Below the pieces are notes generated by a model. That model did no database searches. It was not told where the DNA came from and saw only the letters and a list, made by a program, of their open reading frames with translations. From a virus (Duplodnaviria > Caudoviricetes), in the IMG/VR virus record IMGVR_UViG_3300013105_000003, positions 61,232 through 125,231 of that record: a stretch of 64,000 nucleotides of DNA. One strand, written 5' to 3'. Both the position numbers and the translations under genes were made by a program. Shown here piece after piece: positions 4,401 through 54,642 of the stretch. Position 1 is the stretch's first letter. The number at the start of each line of letters is the position of its first letter.

Positions 4401-4835
4401 ATGGTAGATAGAATGAGATATCCAGAACTTCCTTCTGCTTTAGTTGATAGGTCTGGTTACGATAAAGGAAGGTACCAGATTCTTCGCAATAGACTTCTGG
4501 CCCTTCTTGGAGGTGTCTGTGTTAGGTGTGGAACCGATCAAAACTTAGAGTTTGATCACAGGGACCCAAAGTCCAAAAAATTTACTATCATGGCTAAGTG
4601 GAATAACTATACTAATGAAGAGCTATATAAAGAAATAGAAAAATGCCAACTTCTGTGTAAGAAGCACCACATAGAGAAGACGAGAGAGGATATAGGAGTA
4701 CCTCACGGTGGAGGCGTCTCTGGTAAGAGAGACCCAGAGAGAGGGGATAGGTGTAGGTGTGACCTATGTAAAGCTAAGTACAACGAATACATGAGAGCAC
4801 TTAAGAAGAGACTAAAAGAAGAAAAGAAAAAATAA
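4401..4835 (+). CDS. HNH endonuclease inserted between two tRNA genes (start may be 4413)
   Basis: CVRCG...LEFDHRDP...KCQLLCKKHH plus C-terminal HG...CRCDLC. Confidence 0.85.
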   Translation: MVDRMRYPELPSALVDRSGYDKGRYQILRNRLLALLGGVCVRCGTDQNLEFDHRDPKSKKFTIMAKWNNYTNEELYKEIEKCQLLCKKHHIEKTREDIGVPHGGGVSGKRDPERGDRCRCDLCKAKYNEYMRALKKRLKEEKKK

Positions 4836-4840
4836 AACAA

Positions 4841-4922
4841 GCCCTCATATCAGCGCACTCTTATAAAGTGTCCATTACAATGCTGTATCTGGTGGAGGTT
4901 GGTTCAAGTCCAACTGAGGGTA
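4841..4922 (+). tRNA. Non-canonical tRNA-Ile(UAU)-like RNA lacking a normal D arm and carrying a 26-nt variable region
   Basis: Acceptor GCCCTCA/TGAGGGT, U8A9, anticodon arm GCACT-CTTATAA-AGTGT, T arm GTTGG-TTCAAGT-CCAAC; only TCAGC between A9 and the anticodon stem. Confidence 0.75.
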
Positions 4923-4923
4923 C

Positions 4924-5187
4924 ATGGAAGTAAGAGAAGACTTGGAAGTTATTGAACTTCTAGACTATAACTTTGCTATCCCCTGTGACCACGAAACATG
5001 TGATCTAGAGGCAGACTACTTATTAATTCTTCATTGCCCTTCCTGTGTTTATGAGGAAAAGTTCTTTATTTGTGATCCACACTGGGTCAAGGTATCTACT
5101 ACTAAAGGACTAATGGCTACCTGCTCTCGTTGTTCTGTGTATGGCTCCCTTGAAGATTTCTTGGTAGAAAGACGTTCACTAAAGTAA
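4924..5187 (+). CDS. Cys/His-rich putative zinc-binding protein
   Basis: CDHETC, CPSC, CDPH, CSRC. Confidence 0.7.
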   Translation: MEVREDLEVIELLDYNFAIPCDHETCDLEADYLLILHCPSCVYEEKFFICDPHWVKVSTTKGLMATCSRCSVYGSLEDFLVERRSLK

Positions 5188-5267
5188 ATTTATATCGTAC
5201 CACCTACATAATTTCCAATAGGCAGTACGATAATATTAGTGCCAGGGAGAAATTTGAGGTCACTAAT

Positions 5268-5540
5268 ATGGGAGACAATCTAAAACGTCACGACGATGAG
5301 CCTAGAAAGGCTTACAATCAACACGGAGATGTTGTGGAAGTCGGCACTGAAGTTAGAGATGGTGAACTATTTCTTACTTTCTTTTCAGAAAATGGTAAAA
5401 AAGGTAGTGCGTCGATGCCTGCCGACCAAGCTTGGCTTTATGCTTCAGACATAATCAGCGGAGCAATGGAATTAGACCCAGGCTACATTGAAGATTTAAT
5501 CAAAGAAAGCATTGAGAAATTCCAAGCAGGAGATTACTGA
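5268..5540 (+). CDS. Hypothetical protein, paralog of the next gene
   Basis: Shares G..G....V and D.AW..A.D.IS.A with 5542..5829; CGATAATA motif upstream. Confidence 0.75.
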   Translation: MGDNLKRHDDEPRKAYNQHGDVVEVGTEVRDGELFLTFFSENGKKGSASMPADQAWLYASDIISGAMELDPGYIEDLIKESIEKFQAGDY

Positions 5541-5541
5541 T

Positions 5542-5829
5542 ATGCCAGAAAGACTCAATCAACCAAGAACTGGATTTAGTGTAGATGGAGATAGGGTAGA
5601 GATTCTAGCTCATCACACAGACGAAAGTAAGGTTAAGATCCACTTTACCGCACCGGAGCTAGAGCGGGAAGGGGATATTTGTCTAGATTTTGACGAGGCT
5701 TGGCGTTTTGCTAATGACGTTATTTCTTCTGCCTTGACTGTAAACCCAGAGTTCCTTCCTAGCTTATTTGCAGACTTAGGGAATCGTCTCAAGGTTCTAG
5801 AGCAGAAGCAACGAGAAATTACCTCTTGA
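5542..5829 (+). CDS. Hypothetical protein, paralog of 5268..5540
   Basis: DEAWRFANDVISSA versus DQAWLYASDIISGA; AGGAG SD. Confidence 0.75.
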   Translation: MPERLNQPRTGFSVDGDRVEILAHHTDESKVKIHFTAPELEREGDICLDFDEAWRFANDVISSALTVNPEFLPSLFADLGNRLKVLEQKQREITS

Positions 5830-5861
5830 CTCTTGAGAAAGACCCTGCTACACTTGACCAC

Positions 5862-6224
5862 ATGAGCGAAACAAAGATGCCCCCGTTGCACGACGTGGTG
5901 AAGAAGGTCCGAGAAATAGCTAAAGATGCGCCAGACCTTGTATACGAGATGCCAGATGGATGGTGCCAATACGTATTTAATGGTCAGGGGTCTTGTATCG
6001 TAGGACAAGCCTATCTTGCTCTTGGAACTCCTATAAAGAAGGTTGAGTTGTGGGATACCGAAGAGAACGGACCTAGCGGTATAGAGGAAATAATAGAAAG
6101 AGAGTATGAAGAGTACTCAACTCTAGCTAAGTCTTGGTTGAGAGAGGTTCAGGACTCACAAGACACGGGAACCTCTTGGGCAGAAGCTGTAAAGAATGCA
6201 GATATAACCTTAGGGTTGATTTAA
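5862..6224 (+). CDS. Hypothetical protein, paralog family A
   Basis: PDLVY, GSCIVGQA, WLREVQDSQDTGTSWAEAV. Confidence 0.8.
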   Translation: MSETKMPPLHDVVKKVREIAKDAPDLVYEMPDGWCQYVFNGQGSCIVGQAYLALGTPIKKVELWDTEENGPSGIEEIIEREYEEYSTLAKSWLREVQDSQDTGTSWAEAVKNADITLGLI

Positions 6225-6413
6225 TGCTTAAGCTAGGAACTGTTGTAGAGTTTCCAGAAGATCGTAGTCACTATGGAGTGGTTACAGATCCTGAGGTGGA
6301 CGAGTTGCATCTATCAGCCCCAGGACTAGGAAACATTTTAGTGGAGTGGTTTAATAAAAAGAATAACTCAGACAGCTACCTGTGGTGGGAGCTTGAAGAT
6401 TCTCTAGAGGTAG

Positions 6414-6443
6414 TTGACACCGACTGATCTTCTGTGATAGTAT
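6414..6443 (+). promoter_or_regulatory. SigA-type promoter, leaderless
   Basis: TTGACA-N18-TAGTAT; in-frame ATG at 6450. Confidence 0.75.
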
Positions 6444-6815
6444 ATGGATATGCAAATAACCGATAACTATTCCTCTAAGGCAGGAAAGCAACTTAAGGCA
6501 GCTTTGGCAATTGCTGAAGCTTCTCGTTGCTCTCATCGTCATGGAGCAGTTCTAGTAAAGAATGGAGTTGTTCTCGCTGCTGCCTCAAACCAGCAGCGCC
6601 AACCGCAACTCCCACATTGGGCAGAGGGTAGCTGGCGTAGGGTTAGTGTTCATGCAGAGGAGGCAGTTCTCTCTATGGCAGGAAATCAAGCACAAGGAGC
6701 TACGCTGTATGTGGCTCGTGTTGGTAGAATGGATCAAGTTTCCCCCTCTCGTCCCTGCCTTCGCTGCACAGGTCTTGCTGAGCGTTCTGGTATTAGAAAG
6801 ATTGTCCACACATGA
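6444..6815 (+). CDS. Zinc-dependent cytidine/deoxycytidylate deaminase-superfamily protein (start likely 6450)
   Basis: HGAVLV, HAEEA and SRPCLRC motifs. Confidence 0.85.
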   Translation: MDMQITDNYSSKAGKQLKAALAIAEASRCSHRHGAVLVKNGVVLAAASNQQRQPQLPHWAEGSWRRVSVHAEEAVLSMAGNQAQGATLYVARVGRMDQVSPSRPCLRCTGLAERSGIRKIVHT

Positions 6816-31719: not shown

Positions 31720-32388
31720 ATGGAACAATATCCTATGACTAAGCCTCTACTATTAGATTTGTTTTGCTGTTCTGGAGGGAGTGCTGTCGGATATAGTAGA
31801 GCAGGTTTTACGGTAATAGGTGTAGACATTGATCCTATCTTGTCAGCTGATTATCCATATGAAATACACCACGGTGATGCTTTAGAATTCTTAAAAAGCT
31901 ACGGTGGAGATTTTGACGTTATCCATGCGTCTCCACCGTGCCAATCAAGCTCAGCACTCACTAAGGGCACCAATAAAGGCAGACAATACTTAGACCTAAT
32001 CCCTCAAACTAGGGAATTACTAGCAACGTTCAATGTACCTACGGTAATAGAAAATGTGCAAGGCGCTAAGGTACGGAGAGACTTAACCCTATGCGGTGAA
32101 ATGTTTAGCTTAGGTGTGCTACGGCATAGGTATTTTGAGATAGAAAACGCTACGGTGGAAGTGCCAGAGCACAAGGCACACCGTGGACGTGTTAGAGGTT
32201 GGAGACACGGTAAGTACTACGATGGTCCTTATGTTGCTGTCTACGGATTAGGTGGTGGAAAAGGTACGGTCCAAGAATGGCAGCAGGCTATGGGTATAGA
32301 CTGGACAGACAATCGTAAGTCTCTGGCCGAGAGCATACCTCCTGCCTATACGGAGTACATAGGTAATAGTTTAATAAAATCTATATAG
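31720..32388 (+). CDS. C5-cytosine DNA methyltransferase-like protein (start may be 31735)
   Basis: LLDLFCCSGG, HASPPCQ, VIENV, LCGEMF, RHRYFE, E(S)IPPAY motifs. Confidence 0.85.
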   Translation: MEQYPMTKPLLLDLFCCSGGSAVGYSRAGFTVIGVDIDPILSADYPYEIHHGDALEFLKSYGGDFDVIHASPPCQSSSALTKGTNKGRQYLDLIPQTRELLATFNVPTVIENVQGAKVRRDLTLCGEMFSLGVLRHRYFEIENATVEVPEHKAHRGRVRGWRHGKYYDGPYVAVYGLGGGKGTVQEWQQAMGIDWTDNRKSLAESIPPAYTEYIGNSLIKSI

Positions 32389-32411
32389 CCGGCCTATGTA
32401 TCCTGGCAAGA

Positions 32412-35637: not shown

Positions 35638-35787
35638 GCATAGGCCGGCTATACAACCTGGAACCGTTGCAATTGCAACGAATTTGGTCACTTTGTACCA
35701 ATCTTTGTACTAGCCGGCCCGGTCCTGTCTTATCTGCGCATACACGCGAATAGCAGACACTAGGGCAGACTGTCAAGGTCTAGGCTA

Positions 35788-40852: not shown

Positions 40853-42196
40853 CTTTACCAGGACTGTACCATCCTTTGTACCATGCCCTGGAGCGCCGGC
40901 CTAGATACATAGTTGTCCTATGCAACTAATTATGTACTAGTACAAACAAGTGTGCGACTGTCCACGATGTGAGACAGCTCCAGACAGGAACTAGACAACC
41001 TACTGTCTGTCATGCTTAGATACTCATATCGGAACAAAAACAAGCGGAGGGCTAAGACAATGAACAACATTCTCGCAATCTATCGGGTAGGCGGAGCAGT
41101 CCTCACGTTGTCTCACACGTTCACAGACACACCTAAGTATCAGGTGCATGTCAATGAAACGTTGCTAATGTCCTCACATGAGTTTGGAATGGTGGAGCCA
41201 TTCTATTACGAGACATTGCAAGATTACGCGGTTGATGAAATTCAACCTACTCGAATTTTCGTTAACTACTGACAACTAGTAGCCTTTCCCATTGTCGGGA
41301 GACATAGGGAACATCGAAAGGATTAGGTAATGGAAAATATCTATATCGTTCGTCTGGTCAAAGATGGGATTGACGGAGCTATCGTCGGAGTATTCCGCAA
41401 TGAGTCCGACGCGAGGTCGGAATGTGCTAGACAGAATGCCGACAATTTCGTTGGCTGTCTGTCTGAAGTGCAGCGTTATAACGTAATCTAAATGCCTTGC
41501 ATTTATCCGATCTAGTATCGGGTAAGTGTTGGATATTTAGAAAACATCGAAAGGATTAGGTAATGGGAACAAAAGTAATGGCAATTGTAGAATCTCCCAC
41601 TAACGGAGAAATTTACGCGATTCCCTTTGCTAATCAGTTTGCAGCTCAAGATTGGGCAGATAAGCATGATAACGAAATTCTCACTATTGCCATTTATCCA
41701 CTAAGCAACGCGCGCGCAATGCTCGCAATGATCGAAAAGGATTAACGAAATGTCACACTCTACAGATATTGTCGGATATACCTACAAGGCAGACAATTAC
41801 TGCACTGGTTGCATTATCGACGCATTGCCTACTGGGGAGGGTGAGGAATTCGATGGATGGAAACTAACTAGCGGCATTCGTATGTCTACCGAGAAGAATC
41901 TGACAGAGCTTGCCTACGCGTTCGGCATTGATCGGAACGACGAATATTCGTTTGACTCTAGCGAATTCCCTAAAGTCATATTTGCTTACATGCTAGATGG
42001 TCCGCACTACTGCAGTAACTGTCGATGCGAACTAGTTTGGTAGCTAGCGCAGGCAGGCAGGCAGGCAGGGACAGAGCTGGCAGGCTAGGACGTTGGAATC
42101 CTGCCAGCCTTGGCTAGTTTCGTCGGTAGGGTTGCGCTGCAGCTGGGAAGGTGTACACTGAGACACAACACACCGACACAAGCGGAGGGCAGTCTC

Positions 42197-43375
42197 ATGG
42201 CAACCTACACACTTTCACCGGCAGAGTTTGCACTCACTGTTGAAAAACTCGCCAAGGTCAATGAGCGGGCAGAGCGTAAGGGATTCACCGGCAGAGTCTC
42301 TGTTAGTGGTCGGACTGAGACGCGCAAAGATGACTTTGGCTATACTTACGCCGTTGTCGTCACTGAGATTATCGGAGACGCCCCGAAATACAATGGATGG
42401 GAGTTTCTGGCAGCAGTAGACACAGTGGGAGACAATTTCGTTATCCGTGGCGCTGCAGGGACAGACATAGACAACATTGATCGGTCAATGCTTAAGGCTG
42501 GACAGTGCCAGCACTGTAACATCGAAAAGTCTAACCGAATTCACACCTACCTAGTTCGCAATGAATCGGGAGAATTTAAGCAGGTTGGCTCTACGTGCAT
42601 TCGTGATTTCCTTGGCTTGAATATCTTCCCTGGAATGATTCTAGAGTCTGACGTAGACGAAATTGTCGGAGGCTTTAGCGGCATGGCGCGTGAGTACACT
42701 CCGGAAACAATTGTCTCTGTCGCATGTGCTGCAGTTAAGAAGTTTGGTTATGTTTCATCGCAGGTGTGGGAACGTGAGAGCACGCGCACAACTGTAGAAC
42801 GTTTTCTATACCCTGCTTCGCAAGGTCAAGCACAAAAGGATGATCTTGCGTTGCACGCTGAGCTGTCTCCGCTAGTTGATACTGACAAAGCGGAGACAAT
42901 CATCGAAACGCTCACAAGTGCATTCTCAGACAGGGGAGGATATCAAGGTAACCTTTACGCCGTTCTGTCAGGTGACGTGGTGACTTCCAAACATATGGGC
43001 ATTGCAGTCTCTGCCGTCATTGCTTATGACAAACTAGTGGAAGGTAACAGGCAAGCTGCAGTCTGGGCAGATGAAAAGGCAGCACGCGAGGCTAAGGCAG
43101 CATCTATCGACTACGTAGGGACAATCGGAGAAAAGATTACTATTACCGGAATCGTTTCTAAGAATATGGTAATCGAAACTATGTATGGCTTTAGTCATCT
43201 CGTCATTGTGGAAGGTGACAATTTCGTCGCTAAAATGTTCACTACTGCAGGATGGTCGGAGAGTGATTCTGCCGACGTAGATAAGACAGTTACTCTCACT
43301 GGAACAGTCAAGGCACATGACGAATACAATGGCACTAAGCAGACAGTCCTCACTAGGGCAAAGCTAGTCAAGTAG
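42197..43375 (+). CDS. Conserved early phage protein with Zn motif (CQHC...VGSTC) and C-terminal OB fold
   Basis: GGAGG SD before ATG 42197; G.IGEKI...GTVK.HDEY.G.KQT.LTR OB-fold pattern. Confidence 0.75.
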   Translation: MATYTLSPAEFALTVEKLAKVNERAERKGFTGRVSVSGRTETRKDDFGYTYAVVVTEIIGDAPKYNGWEFLAAVDTVGDNFVIRGAAGTDIDNIDRSMLKAGQCQHCNIEKSNRIHTYLVRNESGEFKQVGSTCIRDFLGLNIFPGMILESDVDEIVGGFSGMAREYTPETIVSVACAAVKKFGYVSSQVWERESTRTTVERFLYPASQGQAQKDDLALHAELSPLVDTDKAETIIETLTSAFSDRGGYQGNLYAVLSGDVVTSKHMGIAVSAVIAYDKLVEGNRQAAVWADEKAAREAKAASIDYVGTIGEKITITGIVSKNMVIETMYGFSHLVIVEGDNFVAKMFTTAGWSESDSADVDKTVTLTGTVKAHDEYNGTKQTVLTRAKLVK

Positions 43376-43387
43376 TTTTTACTAGAT

Positions 43388-43424
43388 AAGGCACTAGGTA
43401 ACTAACACTTACCTAGTGCCTTTT
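43388..43424 (+). terminator. Intrinsic terminator
   Basis: AAGGCACTAGGTAA...TTACCTAGTGCCTTTT. Confidence 0.8.
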
Positions 43425-43439
43425 CGTATGCCCATATAT

Positions 43440-44510
43440 AGGCATTCCCTGCAGAGCACGTCCCTAGATCCTTCCCTAGTGCCCTCTGTATCCCTGCCCT
43501 GTATCCCTGCCCTCACACGTTCCCTAGTGCTCTCATATGTGCCTATATGCGCGCGTGAGAGCACCTCTGCCTATACAGGCCCACCTAGTAGCCTGCCTAA
43601 GCTAATAGATCCTCACAAGCGCATACATGAGCACACACACACATGAGCACATGAGCTGAGACACTGCAGCACACAAGCAACTAATCATAATGATAATCAT
43701 TATCAATGCACTTAGCATGAGACACTGCTATGTGTCAATGATATTTCTTAATGAGTATCAATCTCATTAGAGCTAACATATGCATGTATGTGTTGTCAAG
43801 TGCATGCACACAATCAATCTAAAGTCAAGTCTCATATCTCTAAGCACATAGTCTAATGTTTGTCAATGCAGCTAGCTAAGTCTCTGCACTGATTGAGTCA
43901 ATCTCATGTAAGCCTGTCTAACGCGCTAACTCTGACGCAATGACTCATGATGCCTAAACGCTCTACAACTCTCTTAGATTGGCTCTCATGAGTTTCTAAG
44001 ATACTTTCAAGGCTTTAGAGACTCTCAACACTGCAGCAGACACGCGAGACAGAGTGATTACACCTATCTCTAACGCACGCGTACGCGAATAGCAGCTAGG
44101 TAGGTATCTGTCAAGGGAAAAGTCCAGGAGATTCCCATAACAGTAAAATTTCCTGTTGTCAAGTGTTTTAGCAGGAAATTCTGAAAATATTCTCGAATAG
44201 CATATGAAAGATTTACTGTCAAGCCGCTAGCACACAATAAAATGTATGTCAATAGGTTGGCGTGAGTTAATTTCTTTTCATGATGTGAGCTATGTTTGAA
44301 AATAATATAACATAGGCCGGCTATGGTGTTATTTAAAACATAGGCCGGCAATATATCTAGAGAGCACAATCTCCTGGCTTTGTCAAGTGCTAGAAATTAT
44401 GAGTTTATCCCTGCCCCAATTTGCGAGTAATTCCCATGCAATTGTCTATAAAAATGCCCCCGGGGTGAACCAGTAAATGAATTGATTTTATTTGGGGCCG
44501 GGTGTCCGTT
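43440..44510. repeat. Non-coding repeat-rich region, probable genome end / packaging region
   Basis: Periodic CCCT tract, CTCAT/ATGAG repeats, TGTCAA array, CCCCCGGGG at about 44457, between convergent gene blocks. Confidence 0.55.
43687..43705. promoter_or_regulatory. Fur/Zur-family box
   Basis: ATAATGATAATCATTATC matches 18/19 of GATAATGATAATCATTATC; perfect 7-1-7 TGATAAT-C-ATTATCA. Confidence 0.7.
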
Positions 44511-44562
44511 GTGGGACAACTCTAAATTTTAGTGCTAGGGAGTAATATAAACATATTAATAA

Positions 44563-45099
44563 CTATGGCTTAGCTAGACCTATTACTGAAGAGAGTTCTC
44601 TGGTCTTAGTACTACCAAGACGATGTACTCTATCCTTGTATGTCTTACTTCCCCAGCCGTATTCTTTCCGTAAACCACCAGAAGGAAGTTCTACAAGGTC
44701 TCCAACCTGTAACTCTGGTTTTTTATCCCATACATATACGTAGCCCTTAGAGGTCTCAATTATCTGTTTACCGTCGTGGGTATGTGTCTGAAATCCAGGA
44801 AGAGTCGTTCTAGTTGCTTCTTGGAGAGAGTCTAGTTTCTCCTGTAGTTGCTGTACTTGACTCTTTAGAATATTAATACTGTCCAGACTACTCAGGTACT
44901 GGTCTGCTTTACCAATCTCGTAAGCTCTGTAGAAAGCATCAGAAAATTTTTGGTGCGTTGGTGTAGTATGAATAGGACAAGGTAAATTGAAATCCTTACC
45001 TAGAATTTTTAGAGGTTGAGTAAACCAGTCCTGAGCACCATACACTAAGTTCCTACAAGGTTTTCCTGACTTAGTAGGATGGTTACACCTATGAGTCAT
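44563..45099 (-). CDS. Hypothetical protein with N-terminal C..T..G.PC motif
   Basis: RCNHPTKSGKPCRN...CPIH; AAGGTAAG SD. Confidence 0.65.
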   Translation of the reverse strand: MTHRCNHPTKSGKPCRNLVYGAQDWFTQPLKILGKDFNLPCPIHTTPTHQKFSDAFYRAYEIGKADQYLSSLDSINILKSQVQQLQEKLDSLQEATRTTLPGFQTHTHDGKQIIETSKGYVYVWDKKPELQVGDLVELPSGGLRKEYGWGSKTYKDRVHRLGSTKTRELSSVIGLAKP

Positions 45100-48764: not shown

Positions 48765-49796
48765 TCACAGGCCGTGTCTGTCATACCAAAGGTATGACAG
48801 TTTCACCATTGCAACGTCCCAAATATACTGTACAGATTCATTCATCCGAACTTCTAGGTCAGGACTCTCTAGCACAACATAATTTAGGTCGTATTTCTCA
48901 CAAATCCCAAGCCAATACTCGTCAGAGCCTTCACGAACGTTCCCACCATACCGGAGAGGGTCTTCCTCAAACGGTATATTGCTCTTGGTGATGATGTATA
49001 GGTCAGACTTGTTAGCTAGAGCATCCTCAATTAGTGTCTCAGGACACTCACCTAGAGTCTTCTGCCAATGTGGTAAACTCCAATACCCTACTGTCGAAAA
49101 GAGGTCAGTATCTTGGATAATATATGGAGATGTTGTACTGAGCTTAGACCCTTGCTTCTGGAGAGCTAGCTGTCCACGGTAAATATCACCCATAGAGTCT
49201 GGTGTAATCTCATTTATGGTATTTTCTAGGTATGGACGAGCATACTCGAATAGCCAAGGTGCCCCAAGACGGTCTGCTACTACGTGAGATGTAGTTGTCT
49301 TTCCAGTAGACTCTGCACCGAAGAAGGTTACGCGAGTCTTGATGTACTCTTGGAACTCTGGAAGTATATTCTTAAAGTACTGGAAAGGATAATTACGTAC
49401 CTTTGTAGCCTTAGATGGGTTAATCTGGCGCTCAATATCGTAAGGGTAGAACTTAGTGCCTGTTAGCTCAGCTAGTTTCTTTCCGTACAACTCACTAGCT
49501 ACAATAACATCAATTCCTGCTCGAATTCCCCAGTCAAGTAGCATATTCTTCCACATATCCCAAAATCCTGGAGCTTCAGGATCTTGTTCAATAAACTCAG
49601 AGTAGGTATGCACCCGTACATTGTGGGAAGAAACTGCCTTTGTTACTGCACTTACTCTTTCTTCTATAAATGGTTCATCTGGTTGTGTGTTGACGATTAG
49701 TTCAACACCTTCGTCAGCTAGTGACTCAGCGAACTGTATTAATTGCAAGTGTCCGGTCGTAGGGGGCATCGCTGTCATCAAGACAAACGCCTTCAT
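48765..49796 (-). CDS. nadR: NadR-like bifunctional NMN adenylyltransferase / ribosylnicotinamide kinase
   Basis: PPTTGH nucleotidyltransferase motif, SELYG, GAESTGKTT, EYARPY, DTD, FEEDPLR. Confidence 0.9.
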   Translation of the reverse strand: MKAFVLMTAMPPTTGHLQLIQFAESLADEGVELIVNTQPDEPFIEERVSAVTKAVSSHNVRVHTYSEFIEQDPEAPGFWDMWKNMLLDWGIRAGIDVIVASELYGKKLAELTGTKFYPYDIERQINPSKATKVRNYPFQYFKNILPEFQEYIKTRVTFFGAESTGKTTTSHVVADRLGAPWLFEYARPYLENTINEITPDSMGDIYRGQLALQKQGSKLSTTSPYIIQDTDLFSTVGYWSLPHWQKTLGECPETLIEDALANKSDLYIITKSNIPFEEDPLRYGGNVREGSDEYWLGICEKYDLNYVVLESPDLEVRMNESVQYIWDVAMVKLSYLWYDRHGL

Positions 49797-50460
49797 TAAG
49801 ACTCTTCTTCCATACTAGGTATCCGTAAAGTGTGTTTCCAAGGAAAAGTACATACTGGGCAGCTACTAGGAATAGACCAGTAGTGTAATACGTGTAGATT
49901 GCGAACACATTTACCAGTGCCCACACTCCCCAGTTCTCAAGCTTCTTGTTATCGAGAAGGAACTGAGCAAGAATTGTCCCAGCTAGAATGAGTCCATCAG
50001 TCCAAGCCATGTTACCACCAATGGCGTTACTCAGAACAGAGGCTCCAAGGTACCCTACACCAGCTACAAGTAGGTAAACAGGAACCATTTTTAGTGATAC
50101 ATGGGTCACAACTCGTGCATTTGTGTCCTTACCCCAACGAATCCAGCCATAGATAAGGGTTGGGACAAGGTAGGCATTTAGAATAACACTAGCAAATAGT
50201 CCGCTCTGCCAGAAAAGCACAGCATAGGCTGCTGATGAGATAGCACCTAGAGGGTAGTTAATTCGGCGCTCCTTCACACACAGGTAGGTACATGTGTATG
50301 AGGTCAGAACTGCAAATACTTCTAGCCAATTAAGGTCTGTGAGGCTGATCCAGCCAAATTCAGCGCCGATAAGGTAGGAAACTGCTGTCAGTACCACCCC
50401 TACTGCTACGCTCTCGATGTAGTCTTTCTTAGGAGATGACTGTAGGTTCTTTGTCTTCAT
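49726..50460 (-). CDS. pnuC: Nicotinamide riboside transporter
   Basis: Multi-TM protein; YGWIRW, AQFLL..KKLENW..W...N motifs; overlaps the nadR start. Confidence 0.9.
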   Translation of the reverse strand: MKTKNLQSSPKKDYIESVAVGVVLTAVSYLIGAEFGWISLTDLNWLEVFAVLTSYTCTYLCVKERRINYPLGAISSAAYAVLFWQSGLFASVILNAYLVPTLIYGWIRWGKDTNARVVTHVSLKMVPVYLLVAGVGYLGASVLSNAIGGNMAWTDGLILAGTILAQFLLDNKKLENWGVWALVNVFAIYTYYTTGLFLVAAQYVLFLGNTLYGYLVWKKSLNEGVCLDDSDAPYDRTLAINTVR

Positions 50461-51249
50461 GAAAGGAATACTATCATCTCTTGGAGTGAGTGTCAACTCT
50501 CAAGCCAGTCATCGTATGCCTCTGAATCAATTCCTGCCTTTTCAAGTATTACATGGCGCTGGTAATCAGATAGGTTATCTTTCTCAGCTCGCTCATGAAA
50601 GTTATACAAGAAAGTATCCATTTGTGAGAGTGTCCACGTAGTAGCGAAAAGAAAGGTAGTGTTATCACTGGTCATAATGTTCCCAAGGGCAGTGTCCTGC
50701 GTGTTTAGTGGCGTAATATCTGTCAAAATCACAAGTTGAGCAAACATGACCATTTGCATGAGAGCAGCTGTTATTGTCAATCCACATTCTGTCATCTCGG
50801 CAACGAGTATAGATAATTAACCTAACTGGCTCACACTGCTCTTCAGTCATAAAGATTAATAGCCTTTCTATGCGCTTCTAGTGCCTTTTTGGTTCGCTTT
50901 TTATCAATAACTGTAACTGGCAGTATATAAGGCCAAATAAATAGTATAATAATAAATGCTAATGGTACTCTCCAAGCAAGTTGAAGTTTATAGTCTAAAA
51001 CACTTGTTGATCTTACTAGAGATAAATCATAGTGAATAGCATAGATCGCTGATACTGCTCCGACACCTAGATACCCAATAATCCACCACAGAGAGATAAA
51101 TAGGGAAATTTCTAACACTGGCATTATTTAGGACTTCCATTAAGGTCGTAAGGCTTTGACTTGTCAAGCTCTATATCATCTTCTGTGAACATACCCCCTA
51201 GAATACCAGAATCTAGGGGGTATGTCAACAGTTGTAATTAGTTAGCCTT

Positions 51250-54333: not shown

Positions 54334-54558
54334 AATACTCTATTCTTTTGTAGTTACTAGTTTACCACACTGACTTACTTCTGTCAACCAAGTCCTAGAT
54401 TTTCTACTTCGTCAGGACTAAGCTGCTCCGTTGATTCATTGTCATACCAATAATCATCGTTATTTCTCTCTACTCTGAGAATATTTCCACTTTCATCTGT
54501 GTATACATTCTCAGTGTACAGGTACTGGCGAACTTGCAAGTATACTATCTTTTCCATG

Positions 54559-54642
54559 CTCTCCTGGGTGGACTTGAACCACCGACCCATGCCCGAGGCT
54601 AGTTTCCTAGGCAGGCTGCTCTACCGACTGAGCTACAGAAGA
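54559..54642 (-). tRNA. tRNA-like RNA with no anticodon (loop replaced by a GAAA-tetraloop hairpin)
   Basis: TCTTCTG/CAGGAGA acceptor, intact D and T arms, GCCTG-C-CTAG-GAAA-CTAG-CCT-CGGGC. Confidence 0.75.

Follow-up and report, generated by a model that had tools for sequence, protein, structure and literature searches.

Promoter-like sites without -7T in a gene-free gap of a phage genome: a possible set of conditional promoters for a non-coding transcript

Most alphaproteobacterial promoters lack the T at position -7 (-7T) of the -10 element (PMC8407463); in Rhodobacter, -7T is present in only 30-43% of promoters (Henry et al., PMC7703639). Promoters of this kind that are read by RpoD, such as rrnA, rrnB, rrnC and rsp_3110 of R. 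sphaeroides and those of Caulobacter, are bound tightly by RNA polymerase (RNAP) and form unstable open complexes. They are weak in vitro and are activated by CarD (PMC7703639), and the defect in the -10 element has been linked to regulation by CarD and negative supercoiling together (Forrest et al., PMC12976309). An extended -10 element can take the place of the missing base: in rrnB, a TGC placed at -15 to -13 increased basal activity to the same extent as a restored -7T and abolished the dependence on CarD, and the native promoter rsp_3110, which lacks -7T and has an extended -10 element, is CarD-independent (PMC7703639). An array of sites similar to these promoters lies in the DNA studied here, a window of 64,000 nucleotides (nt), which is the whole stretch analysed and corresponds to positions 61232-125231 of a 125,231-bp phage record in IMG/VR (IMGVR_UViG_3300013105_000003).

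The array shares with the alphaproteobacterial promoters a -35 TTGAC, C at -13, T at -12, A at -11 and a base other than T at -7. The RpoD consensus of Caulobacter, TTGaCgS / GCtANAWC (PMC8144410), with C at -13, TA at -12/-11 and C at -7, corresponds to the grammar TGC-TA-nnn-V of the array sites (V being any base but T). Unlike their alphaproteobacterial counterparts, the sites described here are on a phage, are packed eight or nine to 680 bp, lie in gene-free DNA and stand beside about 17 canonical promoters that do have -7T. Tandem promoters for host RNAP, on one strand and in non-coding DNA, are also known as A1-A2-A3 of T7 and as the triple promoter of phiEco32-like phages; these have -7T, lead in from the genome end and drive early genes, whereas the array faces a terminator in a gap between converging genes.

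The reading that we favour, at a rough probability of 45%, is that the sites of the array are promoters whose firing is conditional and whose product is a non-coding transcript. The original prediction had called the same sites pseudo-promoters, which bind the holoenzyme without firing, perhaps as an RNAP sponge, a reservoir, an entry ratchet or a protection of the ends, or else need an additional factor.

The sites of the array and the promoters of genes

Perfect TTGACA hexamers start on the minus strand at 43738, 43799, 43866, 44114, 44162, 44222 and 44252, and also at 44386 (all positions are those of the window, unless a contig is named). Followed leftwards along that strand, the array begins with site 0 (44358-44386; TTGACA-N17-TCTCTA, the spacer ending in TGc), which has neither -11A nor -7T. 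Site 1 (44224-44252; TTGACA-N17(TGTGc)-TAGCGG) adjoins site 2 (44194-44222; TTGACA-N17(TATGc)-TATTCG), with 30 nt from start to start. There follow site 3 (44134-44162; TTGACA-N17(TGt)-TATGGG), site 4 (44086-44114; TTGACA-N17(TGc)-TATTCG), an imperfect site without TG (43873-43901; TTGACT-N17-TAGCTA) and site 5 (43837-43866), which reads TTGACA-N18-TAGAGA or, alternatively, N17 with TGc-TTAGAG. Site 6 (43770-43799; TTGACA-N18(TATGt)-TAGCTC) and site 7 (43709-43738; TTGACA-N18(TGc)-TAAGTG), the last, complete the array. One further minus-strand site of the same class (35747-35776; TGc-TATTCG) is an outlier 270 nt upstream of a canonical promoter on the same strand (TTGACC-N17-TGcTAGGTT, 35504), and has TGCTATTCGCGT in common with site 4. 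The intervals between the sites in the gap are irregular (134, 30, 60, 48, 248, 67 and 61 nt). For the seven sites listed in the original prediction, and likewise for the outlier, positions and -10 hexamers are exactly as given there.

The -35 element is a perfect TTGACA in eight of the nine sites in the gap and TTGACT in the other, with spacers of 17 or 18 nt, and the invariant core is TTGACA-N14/15-TGY-T. The extended -10 element (TGY) is present in all eight gap sites with a perfect TTGACA as well as in the site at 35776, and has the form TRTG in 5/9 sites; from -14 to -11, five sites have GCTA and two have GTTA. The canonical -10 element TAnnnT is not found: -11A is present in 7/9 sites, and the base at -7 is G in six, A in two and C in one, so that -7T is missing from every site (0/9), as had been claimed. 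The accompanying claim of an extended -10 element in most sites is borne out by the count of 8/8, with a reservation about the site at 43866, where TG is found only in the register TTAGAG and TA only in the register TAGAGA, and never both together.

Eight TTGACA hexamers on one strand in 654 nt compare with 0.29 expected (P=9e-10). The hexamer is followed by TGY at N14/15 in 8/8 cases in the gap and in 9/102 cases elsewhere. Among sites with a perfect -35, TG and TA, -7T is present in 12/15 outside the gap and in 0/6 inside it (Fisher p=0.0015). Measured against base composition, the missing T at -7 is weakly significant (p=0.04), and the enrichment of G at this position has p=0.006 in a post hoc comparison. 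The gap sites form a class that is real and distinct from the gene-linked promoters.

About 17 gene-linked promoters of the same phage have the form TTGACA-like-N17/18-TAnnnT, most with TGR before the -10 element; their ending in T agrees with what had been predicted, and their form implies that the host enzyme reads the grammar TTGACA-N17/18-(TGR)TAnnnT. At many of these promoters (e.g. 2477, 6414, 15570, 25635, 26220 and 56517) the start codon is 0-7 nt (often 6-7) past the -10 element, so near that leaderless mRNAs are implied. Many early genes thus appear to be leaderless, which would point to host lineages in which leaderless translation is common.

The array is situated between two arms of genes. 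According to the lists of open reading frames (ORFs), genes are on the plus strand up to 43375 and on the minus strand from 44563 to about 61600 (a 17-kb minus-strand arm), and between the converging arms there is an ORF-free gap of 1.19 kb, assigned to no strand (43376-44562). The immediate neighbours are a plus-strand gene (42110-43375) and a minus-strand gene (44563-45099). Coding potential of the gap was rejected and no credible ORF was found downstream of the array, which upholds the earlier statement that no gene follows it.

Several other motifs are interspersed with the sites. After the TTGACA at 44386, TGCTCTCTAGA (44358-44368) bears a weak likeness to an rrn-type boxA (TGCTCTTTAACA). 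Two perfect palindromes are placed between array sites: TAATGAG-N7-CTCATTA (43749-43769), which follows site 6, and GATTGAcTCAATC (43891-43903), which overlaps the imperfect site. The motif ATGAGAnTGAY occurs five times in 43770-43990, and GGCAGGGATA motifs are on both flanks of the array (44403-44415 and 43486-43511). Just downstream of site 0 there are two minus-strand copies of ATAGCCGGCCTATG (44311-44321 and 44339-44349), with others at 35639-35649 and 32388-32398; the four oriented occurrences of (T)ATAGCCGGCCTATG are all in control regions, and this element is probably the operator of a phage regulator.

Downstream DNA and recurrence in other phages

At the downstream end of the array there is a putative Fur-box-like operator (43686-43705, no strand), which matches the classical 19-mer at 18/19 positions and includes the perfect 7-1-7 sequence TGATAATcATTATCA (43691-43705). 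One overlapping copy aside, this is the sole 7-1-7 site with two or fewer mismatches in the 125-kb genome. The box covers the predicted start (+1) of site 7 (43738), a position for a Fur operator that makes more sense if transcription starts there.

Beyond the operator lies a patch of G-rich sequence on the strand of the array (43431-43580, minus strand), with 11 runs of G3 and seven ANGGA motifs in 150 nt; both counts are the genome maximum for 150 nt (the mean for ANGGA is 0.49). The only G-quadruplex (G4) motif of the form (G3N1-7)x4 on either strand of the 125-kb genome is found here (43474-43512, minus strand), about 200 nt beyond the last site of the array and on the same strand. The GC skew of the plus strand drops to -0.41 at this patch, the strongest local G/C asymmetry. 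Next is a bidirectional hairpin with a 17-bp stem (43385-43425), which is the terminator of the plus-strand arm (the T tract is on the plus strand) and would likely also stop minus-strand transcripts from the array. Compared with shuffled sequences, the fold of the minus-strand RNA has z=-5.3 with this hairpin and z=-2.4 without it. Since the plus strand also folds better than its shuffles, no particular RNA is singled out, and in the minimum-energy fold the G-rich segment that bears the ANGGA motifs is mostly paired in a long stem.

IMG/VR was scanned for tandem pairs of TTGACA-N14-TGYTAnnn with a given base at -7. Allowing any base gave 68 loci, of which 32 had a base other than T at both sites and T was at both in 19, leaving 17 mixed loci; by a rough estimate, which assumes about 8e10 bases in the collection, fewer than one locus per class is expected by chance. 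Clustering by sequence reduced the loci to about 15 lineages without T, about 14 with T and about eight mixed. Mixed pairs are below the expectation for independence (chi-square 11.9, p=6e-4) and the arrays are therefore homotypic. Arrays with T have a ribosome-binding site and an ATG within 20-70 nt; arrays without T are followed by 150-480 nt of G-rich non-coding DNA and often by a separate canonical promoter (TGCTATAAT) just before the first gene. In 11 related contigs, the -35, TG and TA are fixed, the spacers vary and the base at -7 is never T. One group of arrays without T has a terminase 62-64% identical to those of Pelagibacter and Roseobacter phages, whose hosts are alphaproteobacteria. 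On another contig (L077), an operon is preceded by five sites without -7T and by no other candidate promoter.

In pelagiphage- and roseophage-like contigs (L061-L091, groups A-D), a conserved G tract directly follows the pairs that lack -7T (e.g. L073, 553-600; L069, 3787-3830). In groups B-D, the G tract is succeeded by a (TA)n run. There follow 150-350 nt of conserved non-coding DNA and then a canonical promoter, and the arrangement in groups A-D looks like an undescribed leader module. In L084, G tracts come after the array and an A/T-rich field comes after the tracts.

The fullest counterpart is in a complete phage of 94,888 bp and 39% G+C (G002), which has no protein similarity to the phage of the window in the 12 kb examined. 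In this 12-kb locus (L094 = G002:C1:38000-50000), plus-strand genes end at 4747 and minus-strand genes at 6481, so that the arms converge on a gap of 1.7 kb (~4750-6480) containing seven plus-strand sites of the form TTGACA-N14-TG(C/A)-TAnnnV within 450 bp. Seven of the eight matches to TTGACA-N14/15-TGYTA in the genome are inside this gap, and the three best Fur-like 7-1-7 matches of the locus are inside the array. Behind the array are a canonical promoter (TTGACT-N18-TACGGT), a unit of about 130 nt in which GGA motifs reach their maximum for the locus, and a terminator hairpin. No G4 motif follows the array and an Rfam search of the gap returned nothing. The gap also has back-to-back TTGTCAAcccTTGACA pairs and GAATGATTCG(C/T)ATTC boxes.

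The phage, its relatives and its host

The phage is uncultured and novel, with a terminase, portal, capsid protein, PolA, DnaB and UvsX that only profiles recognise, and its nearest cultured relative is the Microbacterium phage Magritte, with 28% identity in the polymerase. Magritte was rejected as a comparator: over 90-133 kb nearly all of it is on a single strand, the one place where it converges, towards the right end, measures just 73 bp, and it has nothing comparable to the gap. In a BLAST search, the gap matched none of 50,697 phage records. An exact scan for TTGACA-N14/15-TGCTATTCGCG yielded 49 hits, all of them single and none from a related phage. A 178-aa protein of the phage has two homologues (52% and 47% identity), on contigs of 2.7 kb and 1.1 kb. 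The stoperators of the L5 type, which contain TGTCAAG, were dropped because the adjacent bases vary.

Only one sigma gene, of the sigma-28 type, is present in the phage, and no second sigma was found among its proteins; T7-like RNAP was likewise not found, in a search run without a positive control. A pair of genes for PnuC and NadR (48765-50496) has its counterpart, with 64% and 57% identity, in two neighbouring genes of a 17.5-kb contig (L059, G001:C19), which is binned to a metagenome-assembled genome (MAG) of Candidatus Saccharibacteria with 43% G+C and which matches no other protein of the phage. This likeness may be a hint of the host or an artefact of binning. Among the tRNAs of the phage, ARAGORN reports one with the anticodon CTA, labelled Pyl (54558-54642), which is possibly an amber suppressor or an aberrant tRNA.

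Possible conditional promoters and the alternatives

The term pseudo-promoter had rested on the view that a promoter without -7T does not fire, a view that does not hold: CarD, supercoiling or an extended -10 TGC can rescue such promoters (PMC7703639, PMC12976309). The consensus of E. coli alone is a poor ground for labelling promoters "dead". The other half of the original prediction, that the sites need a factor, is compatible with the literature on promoters that lack -7T and are activated by CarD. The sites combine a consensus -35 with TGY, and a description as promoters that bind tightly and whose open complexes are unstable would suit them better than the term pseudo-promoter.

On the reading that we favour, the gap would be a control island of the phage, with a core that is a tandem array for the holoenzyme of the host's primary sigma, all of one kinetic class. 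The consensus -35, the extended -10 (TRTGY or TGY), the -12T and, usually, the -11A would hold RNAP tightly, and the open complexes would be unstable. The controlled step would then be the formation of the open complex, by way of a CarD-type factor, negative supercoiling or the level of the initiating nucleoside triphosphate. Supercoiling could be set by the two converging gene arms, and we infer that positive supercoils between busy arms would silence promoters of this type. Transcripts would run leftwards on the minus strand for about 300-950 nt. The Fur operator would block the last promoter and obstruct those upstream of it, in dependence on iron. Transcripts that pass this point would go on into the segment with its G runs and ANGGA motifs, to be stopped by the bidirectional hairpin (43385-43425).

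What is made would not code for protein: it could be an RNA with a regulatory or sponge-type role, or it could form an RNA:DNA hybrid as an R-loop or G4 primer. The sponge RNAs CsrB and RsmZ, whose GGA motifs are in hairpin loops, also have many ANGGA motifs in a short terminated non-coding unit, to which the 7/150 nt found here and the GGA-rich unit of the 94,888-bp phage are comparable. Unlike the genes for those RNAs, the gap has no Rfam hit, and CsrA was not found in the phages (the phage of the window included) or in the MAG of the candidate host.

Several observations weigh against conditional firing of the array. The region to be melted (-11 to +1) has the same G+C content at the gap sites as at canonical promoters (0.41 versus 0.43), on which ground harder melting of the gap sites was rejected. 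CarD was not found among the proteins of the phage, and the sole hint of a host is the MAG binned to Saccharibacteria, which has no CarD_C hit (the MAG is incomplete). With the terminator removed, the downstream fold is only moderately above shuffled sequences (z=-2.4); nothing above noise was found in the gap at E<=1 in Rfam, and no covariation was seen downstream of the arrays in nine related contigs. Searches of IMG/VR and of metagenomes from JGI, made with the two flanking proteins, with an alignment of the 178-aa protein and its two homologues and with the capsid protein, turned up no close relative. In most of the other phages, the array without -7T is separated from the first gene by a canonical promoter, so that gene expression there does not need the array.

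The original prediction that the sites bind holoenzyme without firing is partly upheld, in that a distinct class, linked to no gene, does combine -35, TG and -12T with the absence of -7T; the premise that this absence prevents firing is unsupported. Docking without firing would hold RNAP in closed or early intermediate complexes and would make of the array a landing pad, a reservoir, a roadblock between the arms or a copy-number-dependent sink for sigma-A holoenzyme. In its favour, the determinants that are read in double-stranded DNA (-35, TG and -12T) are perfect in nine sites, whereas the bases captured as single strands are degraded (-11A in 7/9 and -7T in 0/9); the array is followed by no gene, and in other phages such arrays are homotypic and upstream of a separate canonical promoter. 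Closed complexes are short-lived and would therefore be poor sinks, and a sink would also catch core enzyme that is required by the sigma of the phage itself. Real transcripts are suggested by the Fur operator at +1 and by the downstream terminator, and the operon on L077 appears to depend on such sites. Moreover, in the one system tested the extended -10 makes up for the absent -7T (PMC7703639). Docking without firing is a possibility that we consider unlikely.

A more specific form of the firing model is an origin of replication that is primed or activated by transcription. An R-loop would be stabilised by the G-rich RNA together with the displaced G-rich strand (G4), and would be extended by the family-A polymerase of the phage under the gate of Fur. 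Promoters without a protein product that are followed by hybrid-prone sequence, as here, are known from phi1.1A/1.1B of T7 with its A/T-rich segment, the R-loops of T4 ori(uvsY) and ori(34), RNA II of ColE1 and the G-quadruplex primer of mitochondrial LSP-CSBII. The gene-free promoters in the gap lead to the genome's only G4 motif and to its strongest G/C asymmetry (-0.41) on the side that is transcribed; among the proteins of the phage are PolA, a DnaB-like helicase and UvsX; and G tracts directly follow other arrays without -7T, with the A/T-rich field coming next in L084. The islands of rV5-like coliphages are similar in being gene-free and in having host-type promoters that serve no gene, G-rich sequence and Fur-like boxes. 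Two clusters of such boxes are found in rV5, one in a stretch of at least 2.2 kb without an annotated gene and one beside a TTGACA promoter that is followed by G-rich sequence. The rV5 promoter examined carries -7T (CACAAT), so the lack of -7T is not a trait common to rV5, which also differs in having no eight-site array and in showing no similarity of sequence. Against an origin, no iterons, DnaA boxes or clear unwinding element were found after the G patch, and multiple promoters and a Fur operator are foreign to the known origins named above. The cumulative GC skew peaks at the gap, as at a terminus (although this is confounded by the direction of transcription), and the array of the 94,888-bp phage has no G4 motif after it. 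An origin is rather doubtful.

The sites could also be iterons for a DNA-binding protein of the phage that merely resemble promoters, or part of a packaging or terminal-repeat region of a linear genome, neither of which seems at all probable. TTGACA is kept perfectly, more strictly than in real promoters, and GGCAGGGATA motifs are on the flanks of the array. In genome maps of the Herelleviridae type, the physical ends are where two arms converge, which is the position of the array. The bipartite spacing, N14/15 and then TGY-TA, corresponds exactly to sigma regions 4, 3 and 2; there is free variation in the spacers, the intervals between sites are irregular, and the same grammar is found in unrelated phages that have no proteins in common, all of which speaks against iterons. 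A 123-bp repeat at the ends of the record falls within a gene and is therefore an assembly overlap. That the sites are decayed, functionless relics of former early promoters, as the lack of a downstream gene and the degenerate -10 boxes might suggest, is very improbable, for neutral decay would be expected to strike the -35 and TG just as much, and both TTGACA and TGY are intact in 8/8 sites, and the architecture recurs in the 94,888-bp phage and in about 15 lineages.

A broader proposal goes beyond conditional firing at one locus: consensus arrays without -7T might be a distinct and undescribed class of phage cis-elements, at which RNAP is captured with high affinity, is released on a signal from Fur and iron, supercoiling or a CarD-like factor, and feeds a G-rich, non-coding R-loop/G4 switch (for origin firing, or as a sensor of topology or timing between the converging arms) that serves no gene. 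As a whole, we consider this proposal unlikely.

If the firing of the array is conditional, then the phage holds two classes of promoters for the host enzyme, a constitutive class with -7T for leaderless genes, and a signal-dependent class that is gene-free. The latter would be a simple readout by which a phage senses the state of its host, i.e., its iron, the topology of its DNA and the cofactors of its RNAP. The occurrence of homotypic arrays, not proximal to genes and followed by G-rich DNA, in about 15 lineages, together with the layout of the 94,888-bp phage, points to a general non-coding module of phages that annotation pipelines ignore.

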